Of a stretch of DNA of 62,443 nucleotides, positions 42,865 through 48,306 are shown in pieces (position 1 is the stretch's first letter; each line of letters begins with the position of its first letter). The translations under genes and the position numbers were made by a program. This DNA comes from Nanobdellota archaeon. Lineage in GTDB: Archaea; Nanobdellota; Nanobdellia; JAAOXT01. The stretch covers positions 1-62,443 of the forward strand of contig JAAOXT010000024.1 of assembly GCA_018221045.1 (NCBI GenBank). Reading direction: 5' to 3'. The notes below the pieces were generated by a model that was not told the origin of the DNA, did no database searches, and saw nothing but the letters and a program-made list of their open reading frames with translations.

Positions 42865-43383
42865 ATGAAAAACTTAATACTTGACTACATTCCATTCATC
42901 ATAATAGGAATAATATATTTTCCCCTGCTTGCACTCATAATCCTAACCCACATCATCGATTACCGAATTCTCAAAACAATCCACGTCAAAAAAAACAAAT
43001 GGAGCCTAAACATTTGTTGCGGAAACACTGACGGTGGCGGAATGAACGCGGACGTCGTGAAAAGAAACGTGCCAAACTTCAAACAAATAAAAAACGTTTA
43101 CAAACTCCCCTTCAAAAACAAAGAGTTCAAAAAAGTTTTGTGCTCCCACACGATGGAACACTTGGAAAAACCCGACGAGTTCTACAAAGAACTGAAAAGA
43201 GTTGGAGAAAACGTGACAATCCTAATCCCCCCAATATGGGATTTACTGGGCTGGCTCGCTTTCCGAGAACACAAATGGCAATTCCTAACACCCAAAACCA
43301 AACACGAAAACAAGCTGCCCAAAAAAATCAAGCTACCCTACTGGAAAATACAAAAAAAACTAGGGCAAGAAATCAGGTGCTAA
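42865..43383 (+). CDS. Membrane-anchored methyltransferase-domain protein (Methyltransf_11-like)
   Basis: N-terminal TM; LNICCG..NAD, LPFKNKEF..CSHTMEHL. Confidence 0.7.
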   Translation: MKNLILDYIPFIIIGIIYFPLLALIILTHIIDYRILKTIHVKKNKWSLNICCGNTDGGGMNADVVKRNVPNFKQIKNVYKLPFKNKEFKKVLCSHTMEHLEKPDEFYKELKRVGENVTILIPPIWDLLGWLAFREHKWQFLTPKTKHENKLPKKIKLPYWKIQKKLGQEIRC

Positions 43384-44003
43384 CTCTTCAAAACACTCAT
43401 CAAAGACTCCTGAGTTCCTTCAACAGCCTCGCAAACCCATAACTTAGTGCTTTCTTTATCTAACTCGCCGATAAAACCTCTTAAAACAATATCAGAAAAA
43501 CCTTCCAAGATAAACTCGGACCTTTTCTTAAAACACGAAACAAGGTCTTTAGTCTCTCTTTCCTTATAACATTCAGTTCTCAAATGAATTCCAAACTCTA
43601 AATCATCAATGGAAACCCCTGGAGAAAAAAGGATGTCAGGATAACCCTGATTCAAAAAGTAAACAGATATATCATTACAAATAGGTATCAAAAAATCGGT
43701 GCTAAAATCCGCAAAAATCTCTCCAACAACATCTCTTATTACTGAATGCTCCGCAATTTTTGACAAATAATCCTTATAACCAATCCCATATCTTTCAATA
43801 ATTTCAACTTTTTGTTCAACAAAACGACCAAGACCTTTTCTATACATAATTGAATCGCCGGAATCAACACCAATCAAAACAAGATTCTTACATAATTTAT
43901 CAAAATCATAAACAGCTGTCGTGTCAACAACTAATTTGTCAGCCTCTTCAACAGAAATTTCTGGTCTAAGCCCGGAAACATCACCATCAAACAAACGTCT
44001 CAT
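43380..44003 (-). CDS. Hypothetical protein
   Basis: 207-aa ORF. Confidence 0.55.
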   Translation of the reverse strand: MRRLFDGDVSGLRPEISVEEADKLVVDTTAVYDFDKLCKNLVLIGVDSGDSIMYRKGLGRFVEQKVEIIERYGIGYKDYLSKIAEHSVIRDVVGEIFADFSTDFLIPICNDISVYFLNQGYPDILFSPGVSIDDLEFGIHLRTECYKERETKDLVSCFKKRSEFILEGFSDIVLRGFIGELDKESTKLWVCEAVEGTQESLMSVLKS

Positions 44004-44057
44004 GAACTAAAAAAGAGAAATTCGAAATAAAAGTTTTTCGATTACAACAAACCTTAA

Positions 44058-44102
44058 ATAGTGTCAAAATTACTATAAGTATTAGTGTTATAATAACAAT
44101 AA
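44058..44102. promoter_or_regulatory. Two tandem candidate NrtR operators (GT-N7-AC) downstream of a TATA box
   Basis: ATAGTGT-CAAAATT-ACTATAA (44058-44078) and TTAGTGT-TATAATA-ACAATAA (44082-44102); TATA-like TTAAATA at 44054-44060. Confidence 0.6.
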
Positions 44103-44113
44103 GGTGATGTTTT

Positions 44114-44776
44114 ATGCACAGAAGAAAAAACAAACAAGAAATGGACCTTATCCTTTACTTAGAAGAAGGGTACGCGCATAGACGTGTTTTAGAATTCATT
44201 AAAAAAACAGAGGGAGCTACCCTTGAACAAATCGCGGACAGCTTTACAGGAAGCGAAATGTGCCACGACCCGTACGCGCCAGGTCATAAAAAAGAGATAA
44301 ACATAGACCTCAACGACCCCACTGCTGTCAGGCAGGCCAGAATAACAAACTTAGAGTTCTACGACATAATGGGCAAATTAAGCGATTACTCCTACTTAGA
44401 AGAAAAAGTTTACAGGATAAACGGGCAGGGAATCAAAATTCTTGAAACAGCAGAGAAAACAAAAAAAGCTTATGAAAAATGGGCAAAAGTGCTTGAAGAA
44501 AAAATAATACCTCACGCGCTTGGAGAACTCCTGAGAATAAAAATTGAAGTGAACCCGCACGCAAACGGGATTCCAGAAGACTTCGTTCGCGACCTGATAC
44601 GAAAGGATAAAGAAATCCCTAATTTAATCGCAGAGCTTGATGACAGGGACCTCTCAAGAATATTAAAACTAATAAACGGGATTGACATAGCCCGCCACGA
44701 TCAGATAACCTTCAAAAGAGAAGAGAGTTGGTGGAGGGACAAACAACTTCCAGAGGTGAGCATCCTTGACATCTGA
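44114..44776 (+). CDS. Hypothetical protein, possible N-terminal winged helix
   Basis: RRVLEFIKKTEGATLEQIADSF; GGTGA SD; first gene of the nadA operon. Confidence 0.6.
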   Translation: MHRRKNKQEMDLILYLEEGYAHRRVLEFIKKTEGATLEQIADSFTGSEMCHDPYAPGHKKEINIDLNDPTAVRQARITNLEFYDIMGKLSDYSYLEEKVYRINGQGIKILETAEKTKKAYEKWAKVLEEKIIPHALGELLRIKIEVNPHANGIPEDFVRDLIRKDKEIPNLIAELDDRDLSRILKLINGIDIARHDQITFKREESWWRDKQLPEVSILDI

Positions 44777-45416
44777 CGTATTCTATCTTAAAACTCATAG
44801 AACCATTGACTTACAACTACCCTTAACATCTGAACTAGGGAAGGAAAACCTTGAATCTCTCTTAATCGTGTTTGGCGAACGAATGGTAGAAAATATCAAC
44901 ACTCTCGACCCTATAGTTAGGGACGAAGAAGAACTAAAAAAAGTCAACGAGAAAAATATTCCGATATATTCTCGTTACAAACTATTGGAAATTATACTTT
45001 CAAAATCAGAAGCGGGCAAGCCCATGATTCTACAATTAAGGCCTAAAGACTACTTCAAACCGGGAGACCTGGTCCAGGCCTTCGTCTTCGAACCATTTGA
45101 AAGAAAAGTAAGGTTTGAACCAGACGAAGTTGAAAAGATAACTGAATATGATTACACGCAAGCCGTGGGCTTGAAAAAAAACGGAAGTCCTTACCTTTAC
45201 TCAATGTATCTGATGCACGATTGGGAGTTTAAATTCCTTAAACAAGACAAAAACTTCAGAAAATTATGGATTGATTACTCAAGACCTGTGGTCACGGACA
45301 ATGAAGACGTTCTTTACACAAGAATATTCCAGTTTTTTGAAGCAGAATTAAGAAAAGCTTCAGGAGAGAAAAAATTCGTTCTAAAACCGCCAAGAATTCT
45401 GGAGGGAGCAAGATGA
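44766..45416 (+). CDS. Hypothetical protein
   Basis: 216-aa ORF overlapping both neighbours (11 nt and 4 nt). Confidence 0.6.
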   Translation: MTSDVFYLKTHRTIDLQLPLTSELGKENLESLLIVFGERMVENINTLDPIVRDEEELKKVNEKNIPIYSRYKLLEIILSKSEAGKPMILQLRPKDYFKPGDLVQAFVFEPFERKVRFEPDEVEKITEYDYTQAVGLKKNGSPYLYSMYLMHDWEFKFLKQDKNFRKLWIDYSRPVVTDNEDVLYTRIFQFFEAELRKASGEKKFVLKPPRILEGAR

Positions 45417-46339
45417 AACAAATTGAATACGAAAAACGCATAAATGAATTGAAAAAGAAAAAGAACGCGATAATCTTAGCTCACAACTACCAAAGACCAG
45501 AAATACAAGAAATCGCGGACATAACCGGCGACTCCCTAGAACTCGCTAAAACTGTTCAAAAAATAAAACAAGACATAATCGTTTTCTGCGGAGTAAGCTT
45601 CATGGCAGAAACCGCCAAAATCCTCAACCCATCAAAAAAAGTTCTGCTCCCAGTAAAAGAAGCTGACTGCCCAATGGCAGAAATGGTTGACCTCAAAGAA
45701 CTCAGAAAAACAAAAAAAGGCGCAATCGTTTGTTACGTTAACACGACAGCTGAAACAAAAGCGTTAAGCGACGCGTGCTGCACTTCAAGCAACGCCAACC
45801 AAATAATCAAATCCCTCCCCAACAAAAAAATACTTTTAGTACCTGACAAAAACCTGGCGTACTTCCTGCAGAAACAAAACCCTGACAAAACGATAAAATC
45901 TTGGAAAGGTTACTGCCCTTACCACGACCAAATAACCAAAAAACAAGTAATCAACAAGAAAAAACAGCATCCCGACGCAGTCGTTATCTGTCACCCCGAA
46001 TGCAAACCAGAAGTTCAAGATGCATCAGACCACGTGTTATCCACAGGAGGAATGATTAAATTCTGCCAAAAGACCACTTACAATAAATTCATTATCATAA
46101 CGGAAACCGGGCTTCTTCACAGGCTCAAAAAAGACAGTCCAAACAAAAAATTTATACCCATAACAGAAAAATTCGTGTGTAAAGAAATGAAAATGACGCG
46201 GCTAAAAGACGTTCTCAACGCGCTGGAAAAAGAACAGCACGAAATAAAAGTTCCAGAACAAACCGCGCGAAAAGCAAGAAAAGCCCTAAAAAAAATGATA
46301 GGAGGAAAACAAAATGGCAATAAATCCAGAAGACCTTGA
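45413..46339 (+). CDS. nadA: Quinolinate synthase
   Basis: LAHNYQ, GDSL, FCGVSFMAE, ADCPMA, YVNT, CCTSSNA, CPYH, HPEC, CKEMK. Confidence 0.97.
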   Translation: MKQIEYEKRINELKKKKNAIILAHNYQRPEIQEIADITGDSLELAKTVQKIKQDIIVFCGVSFMAETAKILNPSKKVLLPVKEADCPMAEMVDLKELRKTKKGAIVCYVNTTAETKALSDACCTSSNANQIIKSLPNKKILLVPDKNLAYFLQKQNPDKTIKSWKGYCPYHDQITKKQVINKKKQHPDAVVICHPECKPEVQDASDHVLSTGGMIKFCQKTTYNKFIIITETGLLHRLKKDSPNKKFIPITEKFVCKEMKMTRLKDVLNALEKEQHEIKVPEQTARKARKALKKMIGGKQNGNKSRRP

Positions 46340-46697
46340 AAAAATAATAAAAAGAATAGAGAGAAAAGAAGAACCTTTAGTAGAAGAATTAATCGAACTT
46401 CTCAATCTTAAAATGAAAAAGAGCTACGAAAACAAACTAAAACTATCAAGAGTAACACTATGTGCTGACTCAAGCTACTTTGAGGTTGAAGTCCCCTTAG
46501 AATACGGCTCAGACGTTGTTGAAAAAGCGCTCCAAGAATACAGGGAAAAAGGGTGGACTGCAGGATACAAAGACGGAACAATAAGCTTCAGTAGCGAGGA
46601 GATAAAAAAACTGGAGAAAAAAAATCAGTTCAGTAGACCCTCAAGACTTCAAAGAGCATTAGAAGACAAAAAACTCGAATTGTTTAACTGGATGTGA
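46314..46697 (+). CDS. Hypothetical protein
   Basis: 127-aa ORF overlapping the nadA 3' end; GGAGG SD. Confidence 0.6.
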   Translation: MAINPEDLEKIIKRIERKEEPLVEELIELLNLKMKKSYENKLKLSRVTLCADSSYFEVEVPLEYGSDVVEKALQEYREKGWTAGYKDGTISFSSEEIKKLEKKNQFSRPSRLQRALEDKKLELFNWM

Positions 46698-46769
46698 AAA
46701 GTTATGGCAATGAGTCCAAGCGAAACTGTCAGATAGTTCAGCGACGGCGCGTTCGACTGGCACGGATGA

Positions 46770-47579
46770 CTAAAACCTGTCCCTGCAAGCAAAAGGAACC
46801 GCTTCGCCCAAATATCCCTTCAAAGCACTGCAAGGAATGACAGTTCCATCCCATTGAATAACGGTTTTTTCCAAACCGCAGTCACAAACCATTTCAGGAT
46901 TCGAAACAAAAGACTTAGAATAAGTGACCTTAATACCATCATCAGATAAGCTTTCGGCAAGAGAAGGTAAAGAAATGACTTGCTCCTCAGTCGGAGCTAT
47001 TACATCCCAGTTCTCCAACGCCCTACCCTGCTTAATCAACCTTAAAACATGCAGGTGAGGAATCATACTAGGACAACCCTTCTTAAGATGATACAATTCA
47101 GTTACAAGATCTTCAAGCCCTTCAAAGACCTGTTTAGTGAGAACGCACTCAAAACTATAAGCAACGTTAAAAGGTTCCATCCAAACAGCCGAAGAATTCA
47201 ACAACTTTGACCAACTACCTTCAGTTGAAGTAATGAAATCATGAGAATACATACCATGCATAGAAAAAACTACTTCATCAATAAAAGAAGAACAATCCTC
47301 AATTAATCCATATGGAATACTCTTATCATAGTAAACACCAGAAGAAAGAACCTGAACATTTCGATCCACACCCTTTGCCATGCTTAAAATCTCAACAATT
47401 TGCGGATGCTCAAAAGGCTCTCCCCCAGAAAACCTGACTTTTCCAAACTCAGGGAAACTTTCAAGAACTCTTTCAACATGACTTGAAAGCATAAAAACCC
47501 CCTCCTTAACAGATTCAGTGGAACAATGAATACAGTCCAGAGAACACTGATTCGTCAATTCAATCGTCAATTCCCTCAC
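46770..47579 (-). CDS. Radical SAM protein with a short twitch/SPASM-like C-terminus
   Basis: CSLDCIHC, SGGEP, CDCG..IQWDGTVIPC...ACR. Confidence 0.85.
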   Translation of the reverse strand: MRELTIELTNQCSLDCIHCSTESVKEGVFMLSSHVERVLESFPEFGKVRFSGGEPFEHPQIVEILSMAKGVDRNVQVLSSGVYYDKSIPYGLIEDCSSFIDEVVFSMHGMYSHDFITSTEGSWSKLLNSSAVWMEPFNVAYSFECVLTKQVFEGLEDLVTELYHLKKGCPSMIPHLHVLRLIKQGRALENWDVIAPTEEQVISLPSLAESLSDDGIKVTYSKSFVSNPEMVCDCGLEKTVIQWDGTVIPCSALKGYLGEAVPFACRDRF

Positions 47580-47613
47580 AATTTTTAAAATAATACAATA
47601 CTAAAATTTAAAT

Positions 47614-47634
47614 TAAACGTAAACCATACACTAA
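47614..47634. promoter_or_regulatory. Candidate NrtR autoregulatory operator
   Basis: TAAACGT-AAACCAT-ACACTAA (reverse complement TTAGTGT-ATGGTTT-ACGTTTA), directly after TATA-like TTTAAAT at 47607-47613. Confidence 0.55.
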
Positions 47635-47640
47635 GACTAA

Positions 47641-48306
47641 ATGACAAGAATTTTCGAAAGACCCTCAGTGACCGCAGACATAGTTGTTTTCACCACACAA
47701 AACAATGAACTAAAAGTCCTGCTAATCAAAAGAGGGAGCACGCCGTTCAAAGACCACTGGGCATTACCAGGAGGGTTCATCAACAAAGGAGAATCAATTG
47801 AACAAGCAGCCAAACGCGAACTCCAAGAAGAAACAGGAGTCAAAAACGTTTACCTAGAACAATTATACACTTTTGGCAAACCAAAAAGGGACCCTCGAGG
47901 CAGAATAATCACTGTGTCCTACTACGCCCTGATAAAATCAAAAGGGGTTAAACTGGAGGCAAGAGAGGACGCTGCGGAAGCCAAATGGTTCCCCGCGTAC
48001 AAGCTGCCAGAACTCGCTTTCGACCACCAAGAAATTATTGAATACGCAAAACAAAGACTCCAATGGAAGCTCGAGTACACGACAGTCGGGTTCCAACTCC
48101 TCCCAAACGAGTTCACGCTAACAGAACTCCAAAAAATTTACGAAATAATCCTGAACAAGAAATTTGACAAAAGAAACTTCAGAAAAAAAATAAATTCCCT
48201 AGACTTATTGAAATACGCTGGCAAAATGACCAGAAAAGTGGCTCACAGGCCAGCCAAACTCTACACTCTCAAAAAAAGAATCGGGGAAATAGTAGAAATC
48301 CTATAA
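47641..48306 (+). CDS. nrtR: NrtR-type regulator (Nudix hydrolase plus C-terminal wHTH)
   Basis: RPSVTADIV, WALPGGF, intact Nudix box G-x5-E-x7-RELQEETGV, RDPRGR, LAFDH, FTLTELQKIYE...DKRNFRKK...RPAKLY. Confidence 0.88.
   Translation: MTRIFERPSVTADIVVFTTQNNELKVLLIKRGSTPFKDHWALPGGFINKGESIEQAAKRELQEETGVKNVYLEQLYTFGKPKRDPRGRIITVSYYALIKSKGVKLEAREDAAEAKWFPAYKLPELAFDHQEIIEYAKQRLQWKLEYTTVGFQLLPNEFTLTELQKIYEIILNKKFDKRNFRKKINSLDLLKYAGKMTRKVAHRPAKLYTLKKRIGEIVEIL

Follow-up and report, generated by a model that had tools for sequence, protein, structure and literature searches.

Can a regulator of nicotinamide adenine dinucleotide (NAD) synthesis of the bacterial type be wired to archaeal promoters? 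The DNA analyzed here (hereafter, the window) is a contig of 62,443 nucleotides (JAAOXT010000024.1 of the assembly GCA_018221045.1) from a Nanobdellota archaeon, and it raises this question because it carries a gene for an NrtR-family protein, nrtR, downstream of an operon that includes nadA, the gene for quinolinate synthase, together with three 21-bp boxes of NrtR type in front of these two units. Bacterial NrtR is known to bind DNA in an ADP-ribose-sensitive manner, at sites that can be tandem and that in most groups share a 21-bp palindrome with a GT-N7-AC core (PMC2330246); the founding paper dealt with bacteria only (Rodionov et al. 2008, PMC2330246). Our answer is that the archaeal NrtR very probably represses both the operon, orfX-orfY-nadA-orfZ, and its own gene through the three predicted 21-bp operators, a reading that draws on the sequences of this locus and of its relatives.

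The product of nrtR (221 amino acids; plus strand, 47641-48306), which the initial annotation had taken to be NrtR, that is, a Nudix domain joined to a winged helix-turn-helix, is, judged by its sequence, a full NrtR-family protein. It matches the Pfam families NUDIX (PF00293, 1.8e-23, residues 11-134) and NrtR_WHD (PF21906, 3e-26, residues 150-210), the latter with 91.8 bits against a cut-off of 27, and a PF21906 scan of the whole genome gave the corresponding match at 48088-48270. The protein aligns over its full length with the structures of Shewanella NrtR (3GZ5, 2.4e-41, residues 4-212) and of Bacteroides AraR (5BS6, 5.7e-45, residues 12-210), the latter being its best match in the Protein Data Bank (PDB). 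It also matches the NCBIfam model NF050029, “ADPR responsive transcriptional repressor” (7e-54), with a score of 183 bits that is under the equivalog cut-off of 400. The Nudix box (47773-47841) is intact, as had been claimed, with the signature GX5EX7REUXEEXGU complete from G45 to V67 (G45-x5-E51-x7-R59-E60-L61-x-E63-E64-x-G66-V67), and therefore NrtR may also hydrolyze its signal. The same signature is intact in 25 of the 40 proteins picked as the nrtR ortholog of each related locus, a few of these picks not being true orthologs. Some close homologs are 360-386 rather than about 220 amino acids long, with an extra region (P0003, P0004, P0006, P0007, P0016, P0020, P0096), and one of them has a match to PF16262.

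The three boxes were found by sequence and pattern search exactly where they had been reported. Box 1 (ATAGTGT-CAAAATT-ACTATAA, plus strand, 44058-44078) and box 2 (TTAGTGT-TATAATA-ACAATAA, plus strand, 44082-44102) are arranged in tandem ahead of orfX, 24 bp apart from center to center with a gap of 3 nt, and box 2 has a single mismatch to TTAGTGT-N7-ACACTAA. The operon promoter thus consists, in order, of a TATA-like TTAAATA (plus strand, 44054-44060), box 1, the 3-nt gap, box 2, a Shine-Dalgarno (SD)-like GGTGAT (plus strand, 44103-44108) and, 5 nt further, the ATG of orfX. The putative TATA box, which has the same sequence in the sister genome G001, extends 3 nt into box 1; box 1 is located between this element and the predicted transcription start, whereas box 2 covers the predicted start and the early leader. 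At nrtR, the TATA-like TTTAAAT (plus strand, 47607-47613) starts at -34 from the ATG and abuts box 3 (TAAACGT-AAACCAT-ACACTAA, plus strand, 47614-47634; in reverse complement, TTAGTGT-ATGGTTT-ACGTTTA), a putative autoregulatory operator between the TATA box and the ATG, which begins 6 nt beyond the box. The TATA-like elements that the initial annotation described at the 44058 and 47614 boxes are thus both present. Genome-wide, the positions of TATA-like octamers relative to start codons peak at -35 to -26, a range that includes the start of the nrtR element. Of the 418 genes preceded by 50 nt or more of intergenic DNA, only 33 have an SD-like motif. Together, these features indicate that leaderless transcripts are the norm here and that the orfX operon, with its GGTGAT, has one of the few leadered promoters. 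Archaeal repressors classically occupy the region bounded by the TATA box and the transcription start, blocking recruitment of the polymerase, and the sequence layout of both promoters, with start sites as predicted, fits such a TATA-proximal arrangement, which recurs in relatives.

Several observations weigh against the proposed regulon, and the first of these would fit chance likeness of the boxes in AT-rich intergenic DNA. The genome (829,638 bases, or 830 kb; 41% G+C; about 90% complete) contains only these three matches to WTAGTGT-N7-ACNWTWA, a consensus drawn from the same three sites. The shorter pattern TAGTGT-N7-AC (20 occurrences genome-wide) is found 3 times in the window, where 0.94 are expected, and at least as many occur in 8 of 100 shuffles. 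A matrix made from boxes 1 and 2 only ranks box 3 about 470th among 152,554 intergenic positions, and the proximal half of box 3 has only 4 of 7 matches. Additional TATA-like strings in the AT-rich orfX promoter (44074-44081 and 44088-44095) make the exact geometry of operators and start uncertain at that promoter. The best solved structure is that of AraR, which responds to arabinose, so that the effector of this NrtR is not readable from homology, and the box-bearing operon holds just one recognizable NAD gene. Leave-one-out matrices made from the three boxes were discarded as a test because boxes 1 and 2 simply find each other and box 3 is unremarkable. Given that neither the counts nor the matrices of the genome's own boxes are compelling alone, we built the case on independent data from relatives.

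Among the 401 genomes sampled from the class (Nanoarchaeia, which comprises Woesearchaeota and Pacearchaeota), 41 (~10%), in 38 genera, encode full-length NrtR orthologs, which are 41-68% identical to the query in an alignment of 23 of them. The winged-helix family PF21906 was detected in 69 of the 401 genomes of the phylum and in four bacterial control genomes; it was not found in four model archaea. For 40 related loci, we analyzed up to 6 kb of flanking DNA on either side, with crude open reading frame (ORF) calls. In the 41 loci, the most frequent neighbors of nrtR are genes for an NAD kinase-like protein (nadK, 18 loci), isochorismatase-type pncA (15), nadE (15), pncB (12), ADP-ribosylglycohydrolase (6) and nadA (4), along with some 30 further Nudix genes. 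Ahead of these operons, a 21-bp palindrome occurs two or three times, as TTAGTGTATTAAATACACTAA in front of pncB in G024 and as TTAGTGTAACTCATACAATAA in front of the G050 operon with nadA, for example. From 61 such sites, we obtained the consensus TTAGTGTA-N5-TACACTAA, in which G6, T7, A15 and C16 are invariant. Across the 40 loci, sites scoring at least 11 bits number 61 in 48 kb of intergenic DNA and 24 in 412 kb of called coding sequence, a 22-fold difference in density, and several of the “coding” sites are artifacts of over-long ORF calls. Directly upstream of nrtR/Nudix, pncB, pncA, nadE, nadA or ADP-ribosylglycohydrolase genes are 44 of the 61 intergenic sites, and most of the others lie in front of an unnamed gene that opens an operon with nrtR or NAD genes. 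These counts extend the regulon test proposed in the initial annotation to the relatives. In the NrtR-linked pncB-pncA-nadE operons, a pair of genes for a radical S-adenosylmethionine (SAM) protein and an aminotransferase-like protein also recurs (L059, L065, L069, L071).

The motif tracks the regulator across the 401 genomes. In a search for TTAGTGT-N7-ACACTAA with at most one mismatch, 32 of the 41 NrtR-bearing genomes had a match (58 sites, compared to 14 for the reversed motif that served as the control), as did 26 of the other 360 (31 sites, with 68 for the control), a co-occurrence with a Fisher exact p of 2e-23. Placement is conserved as well. In 22 of 40 nrtR promoters of the relatives, an element of the TTTAAATA or TTTATATA type ends 0-4 nt before the site, and in 21 of these 22, the ATG either shares the final two bases of the site or starts no more than 7 nt after it; the TATA-proximal half of these sites is usually degenerate and the distal ACACTA is kept, as in box 3. 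The putative autoregulation and the TATA-adjacent geometry proposed in the initial annotation thus recur in the relatives. Tandem sites in the relatives are 22-28 bp apart from center to center, and G050, G002 and G034 have the same order of TATA box, two boxes and start, with a canonical TATA box ahead of the first box.

When the genome studied here is scored with matrices derived from the relatives alone, the three boxes stand out. With all 21 columns, box 2 ranks first, box 1 second and box 3 fifth genome-wide; with the arms only, the respective ranks are 1, 5 and 10 of the 829,018 positions scored. The probability that at least three of the top 10 positions fall inside these 178 intergenic bases is about 1e-9. 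Of the other high-scoring positions, C28:38705 sits within the gene for a proteasome beta-subunit, C26:49473 precedes a gene for a 238-amino-acid protein of unknown function, and C18:26673 is located between a gene for a DedA-like membrane protein and a small ORF; given that all three lack a link to NAD and conserved support, we consider them chance matches. A further match at 47681-47701 (TAGTTGTTTTCACCACACAAA, 11.8 bits), 40 nt inside nrtR and 67 bp from box 3, was also rejected as an operator and is probably either a chance match or a by-product of conserved protein sequence. The scan of the genome for matches at NAD genes that the initial annotation proposed bore out the nadA operon and nrtR, whereas the other genes it expected, nadC, nadE, nadM, pncB and prs, are not in the genome. 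The relatives' matrix found nothing convincing in this genome beyond these two units, because the other NAD genes are absent.

The closest relative adds a footprint of the kind that had been proposed as a check. The sister genome is represented here by a 3.9-kb contig with the same operon that ends before nrtR could appear, and so is counted among the NrtR-negative motif matches above. Between the TATA box and the ATG, the two genomes differ at four positions, all of them within the N7 spacers (P = 0.0026), one in box 1 and three in box 2, with the arms unchanged, which is the pattern expected with a protein that reads the arms and not the spacers. The encoded proteins are 80% (orfX), 50% (orfY), 93% (nadA) and 100% (orfZ) identical between the two genomes, so that orfY (44766-45416, compared with L079:1801-2445) appears fast-evolving for a gene in a tight operon. 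On the other side of the promoter, a gene for a 207-amino-acid protein (minus strand, 43380-44003) has no family match and is absent from the sister genome, where about 50 nt separate the end of the homolog of 42865-43383 from the same TATA box; this difference is a recent insertion or deletion beside the NrtR-box promoter. With motifs at equal promoter positions in dozens of genomes and tracking the presence of nrtR, with all three boxes within the top five to 10 positions of the genome under matrices made from relatives only, and with arms kept while spacers vary, we consider chance likeness of the boxes extremely improbable, notwithstanding the modest counts in the window and the poor score of box 3 under the matrix of boxes 1 and 2.

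The sequences show to which family the protein belongs, what the operator motif looks like, that its placement is conserved and that it co-occurs with nrtR. Beyond this, we infer that NrtR binds the boxes, that it represses and which effector it senses, and the mechanism that we envisage would be as follows. An NrtR dimer would bind 21-bp operators of the form TTAGTGT-N7-ACACTAA. The tandem operators would reach from the TATA box of the orfX operon past the predicted start and into the leader of that operon, and the third, weaker one would occupy the space that separates the TATA box of nrtR from its nearly leaderless ATG. Bound NrtR would at best permit the TATA-binding protein (TBP) to occupy the TATA box, with the recruitment of transcription factor B (TFB) and RNA polymerase, or the formation of the open complex, being blocked, so that both units, including the gene of NrtR itself, would be repressed. 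As in bacterial NrtR, the Nudix domain might bind ADP-ribose or a related product of NAD breakdown, causing release of the DNA, and NrtR, its Nudix box being intact, might hydrolyze that same signal. Genes for ADP-ribosylglycohydrolase and additional Nudix proteins are present within NrtR-linked operons of the relatives, which lends such a response to ADP-ribose indirect support.

NrtR might also bind to these sites without being a plain repressor, by activating transcription, by acting in both directions, or with the boxes functioning as hairpins in the leader RNA. Archaeal regulators such as those of the TrmB family can act both ways. Box 2 is probably within the transcribed leader, and in some relatives an additional, third site precedes the TATA box, which would be compatible with such modes of action. 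Nevertheless, the site at nrtR is flanked by the TATA box and a leaderless ATG and hence lies outside the RNA, and what is conserved is the identity of the bases (T-T-A-G-T-G-T) rather than pairing, given that half-sites degrade one-sidedly without compensation. Furthermore, operators that extend over the TATA-to-start stretch are in the classic position of archaeal repressors. Therefore, we regard a role other than plain repression as unlikely.

Another possibility is that the operators are real but bound by another factor, for example, the product of orfX, which has a helix-turn-helix-like N-terminus. The gene orfX (220 amino acids; plus strand, 44114-44776) is the first one behind the boxes, and searches of its product against Pfam, NCBIfam, PHROGs and the PDB gave no match, with only a marginal winged-helix hit in PADLOC (WH_III-A, E = 0.002). 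However, a search of 1.84 billion representatives gave just two relatives of orfX, whereas the motif spans the class and many bacterial phyla alongside nrtR; besides, the motif has the 21-bp GT-N7-AC form of NrtR sites and is located at the promoter of nrtR itself. We find binding by a different factor quite improbable and retain NrtR as the protein that most likely acts at these boxes. One of the two relatives of orfX heads a Nudix-nadA-nrtR operon behind NrtR boxes.

The initial annotation placed two of the boxes upstream of the nadA operon. This holds for the operon as a whole, but the gene that directly follows the boxes is orfX, and nadA is the third of four overlapping plus-strand genes (44114-46697): orfX is followed by orfY (216 amino acids; plus strand, 44766-45416), which overlaps both orfX and nadA, by nadA (308 amino acids; plus strand, 45413-46339; Pfam NadA, 2.1e-117; NCBIfam NadA equivalog, 403 bits with a cut-off of 294) and by orfZ (127 amino acids; plus strand, 46314-46697). 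None of orfX, orfY and orfZ could be assigned a function; orfY and orfZ, like the 207-amino-acid gene, had no usable match in Pfam, NCBIfam, PADLOC or PHROGs, and the AlphaFold models of orfX and orfY, with mean predicted local distance difference test (pLDDT) values of 53 and 44, respectively, are too poor for a fold search. Profile searches of this genome (G000) detected no gene for nadC (PF01729), NMNAT (PF01467) or nadX (PF01958), no true nadE or nadB, for which there were only weak matches (a PP-loop match of 21 bits and N-terminal dinucleotide-fold matches), and no pncB, pncA or nadK. In the other nadA-bearing relatives examined (G001, G050, G272, G240), nadC and nadX were not found either, and nadB appears to be lacking from them as well. 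With these NAD genes absent, the predicted regulon in this genome consists of nadA, three orphan genes and nrtR.

This scarcity of NAD genes to regulate is one reason to ask whether NrtR here is mainly an ADP-ribose pyrophosphatase with a vestigial role in DNA binding; others are the intact Nudix box and the database names of its close homologs in Woesearchaeota, Pacearchaeota and Nanoarchaeia, which are NUDIX hydrolase or 8-oxo-dGTP diphosphatase. The winged helix, however, scores 92 bits, and its residues D176-K177-R178-N179-F180 show no variation across 23 archaeal orthologs, while the sister genome preserves the operators against drift. Moreover, catalysis and regulation coexist in cyanobacterial members of the NuhA type (PMC2330246). 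A primarily enzymatic protein is, in our estimate, highly improbable, and a functional repressor remains the preferred reading.

The orphan genes keep close company with nadA. In G000, G001 and G050 as well as in two metagenome contigs, nadA is joined to two or three orphan families (orfX, orfY/orf281 and orfZ), often also with a Nudix gene and a radical SAM gene beside nadA, and nadA is preceded by NrtR boxes in G000, G001, G050 and G240. There are two close relatives of orfY and a distant likeness to orf281 of G050, and every relative of orfX or orfY is located upstream of nadA or of a Nudix-nadA unit. Between the metagenome contig L081 (430-1095) and G050 (L014:3586-4431), the promoter DNA, including the NrtR boxes, is 91% identical and the Nudix-nadA-nrtR unit 89% identical, yet the first gene behind that promoter is orfX-like in L081 and the orfY-like orf281 in G050, these genes thus being swapped as cassettes behind one NrtR-box promoter. 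It is conceivable, albeit doubtful, that NrtR in this lineage guards an undescribed pyridine-nucleotide route rather than being a relic, with the orphans supplying missing steps; they could make the substrate of NadA or use quinolinate without a classical phosphoribosyltransferase. As an alternative to such steps, they could serve the exchange of quinolinate with a host.

Divergent from nrtR, across a gap of 61 bp, is a radical SAM gene (minus strand, 46770-47579; Radical_SAM, 7.7e-8). A 66% identical copy is found in convergent orientation after nadA on an unrelated metagenome contig (L080:2698-3225), which makes this gene a conserved neighbor of nadA. As a matter of speculation, it might be controlled together with nrtR through the shared 61-bp region, given that TTTAAA is palindromic; if the radical SAM gene used that TATA box, box 3 would be upstream of its TATA box.

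How far this regulator extends beyond archaea was examined by scanning prokaryotic species, each represented by one genome. Uncultured bacteria of many phyla, among them Chloroflexota, Acidobacteriota, Planctomycetota, Verrucomicrobiota, Pseudomonadota, Omnitrophota, Patescibacteria and Cyanobacteriota, encode homologs with 51-62% identity to the archaeal NrtR, and the scan identified one further homolog in a Nanohaloarchaea archaeon. In many of the bacterial loci (L082-L161), the same TTAGTGT-N7-ACACTAA boxes are present 20-100 bp upstream of nrtR, often in tandem and 24-26 bp apart, even in DNA of 55-65% G+C. The shared homologs and the identical boxes make the regulator-operator pair one conserved subfamily that spans two domains of life, and the designation of the regulator as bacterial-type in the initial annotation agrees with these bacterial homologs and boxes and with the absence of PF21906 from the four model archaea. 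This NrtR subfamily looks far more widespread than the groups given in 2008. A quick maximum-likelihood tree groups the archaeal sequences (5 label changes, compared to 26.8 with shuffled labels) and places the NrtR studied here within an archaeal clade of 15 members with a Shimodaira-Hasegawa-like approximate likelihood ratio test (SH-aLRT) value of 94. We attempted to derive the number and direction of transfers between archaea and bacteria from this tree, but its weak backbone resolves neither, so that a single origin is neither supported nor refuted. A bacterial origin would be the simpler reading because the family is broad in bacteria, confined to DPANN among the archaea sampled and absent from the model archaea.

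In the literature that we searched, no paper pairs NrtR with DPANN, the papers that name both NrtR and archaea describe no archaeal member, and no experimentally characterized regulator of NAD metabolism in Archaea was found. The 2019 study of mycobacterial NrtR searched bacterial and archaeal genomes and mentions archaea nowhere else in its text (eLife 2019, PMC6800001), and a study of Sulfolobus Nudix proteins reported no protein with a helix-turn-helix there. Hence, a bacterial-type NrtR regulon on archaeal promoters is apparently not yet in the literature. As far as can be judged from the sequences, a bacterial regulator-operator pair appears to work unchanged on both sides of the domain boundary, which would make it useful for asking how a transferred repressor fits promoters that depend on TBP and TFB. 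The system is compact and comprises a protein of 221 amino acids, three sites of 21 bp each and two short promoters, of which one is leadered and the other leaderless. For the biology of DPANN, it marks the genes that the cell treats as NAD-linked, including three orphans and a nadA without a visible pathway.

Among archaeal repressors, MDR1, Phr, LrpA and TrmB likewise have operators at or just downstream of the TATA box; these belong to protein families unrelated to NrtR, and to our knowledge, none of them senses NAD metabolites. The closest parallels are the bacterial regulons of Shewanella oneidensis SO1979 (3GZ5/3GZ6/3GZ8) and Synechocystis Slr1690, with which the archaeal system shares the Nudix domain plus winged helix and the 21-bp GT-N7-AC palindrome. 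Bacterial NrtR regulons also have in common with it the linkage to nadA, pncA, pncB, nadE and nadK and a site at the regulator's own gene, and the tandem sites resemble those at Shewanella prs-nadV. In contrast to these regulons, the archaeal system resides in a DPANN host, with its boxes placed on TATA-box promoters; the nrtR box spans from the TATA box to a leaderless ATG, whereas the bacterial ones overlap the -35 and -10 elements of sigma-70 promoters; the Nudix box is intact, unlike those of SO1979 and Slr1690; and the target comprises nadA and three orphan genes, with the rest of the pathway absent from the genome. The NrtR of Mycobacterium smegmatis (PMC6800001) is likewise an auto-repressor beside a nadA operon, but its palindrome, GTTTTCGA-N7-TCGAAAAC, differs in its half-site, the nadA/B/C operon under its control is complete, and its own control by acetylation has been demonstrated. 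Finally, AraR of Bacteroides thetaiotaomicron (5BS6) belongs to the same two-domain fold family; it responds to arabinose and governs genes of sugar utilization, whereas the conserved neighbors of NrtR in these archaea are all NAD or ADP-ribose genes.

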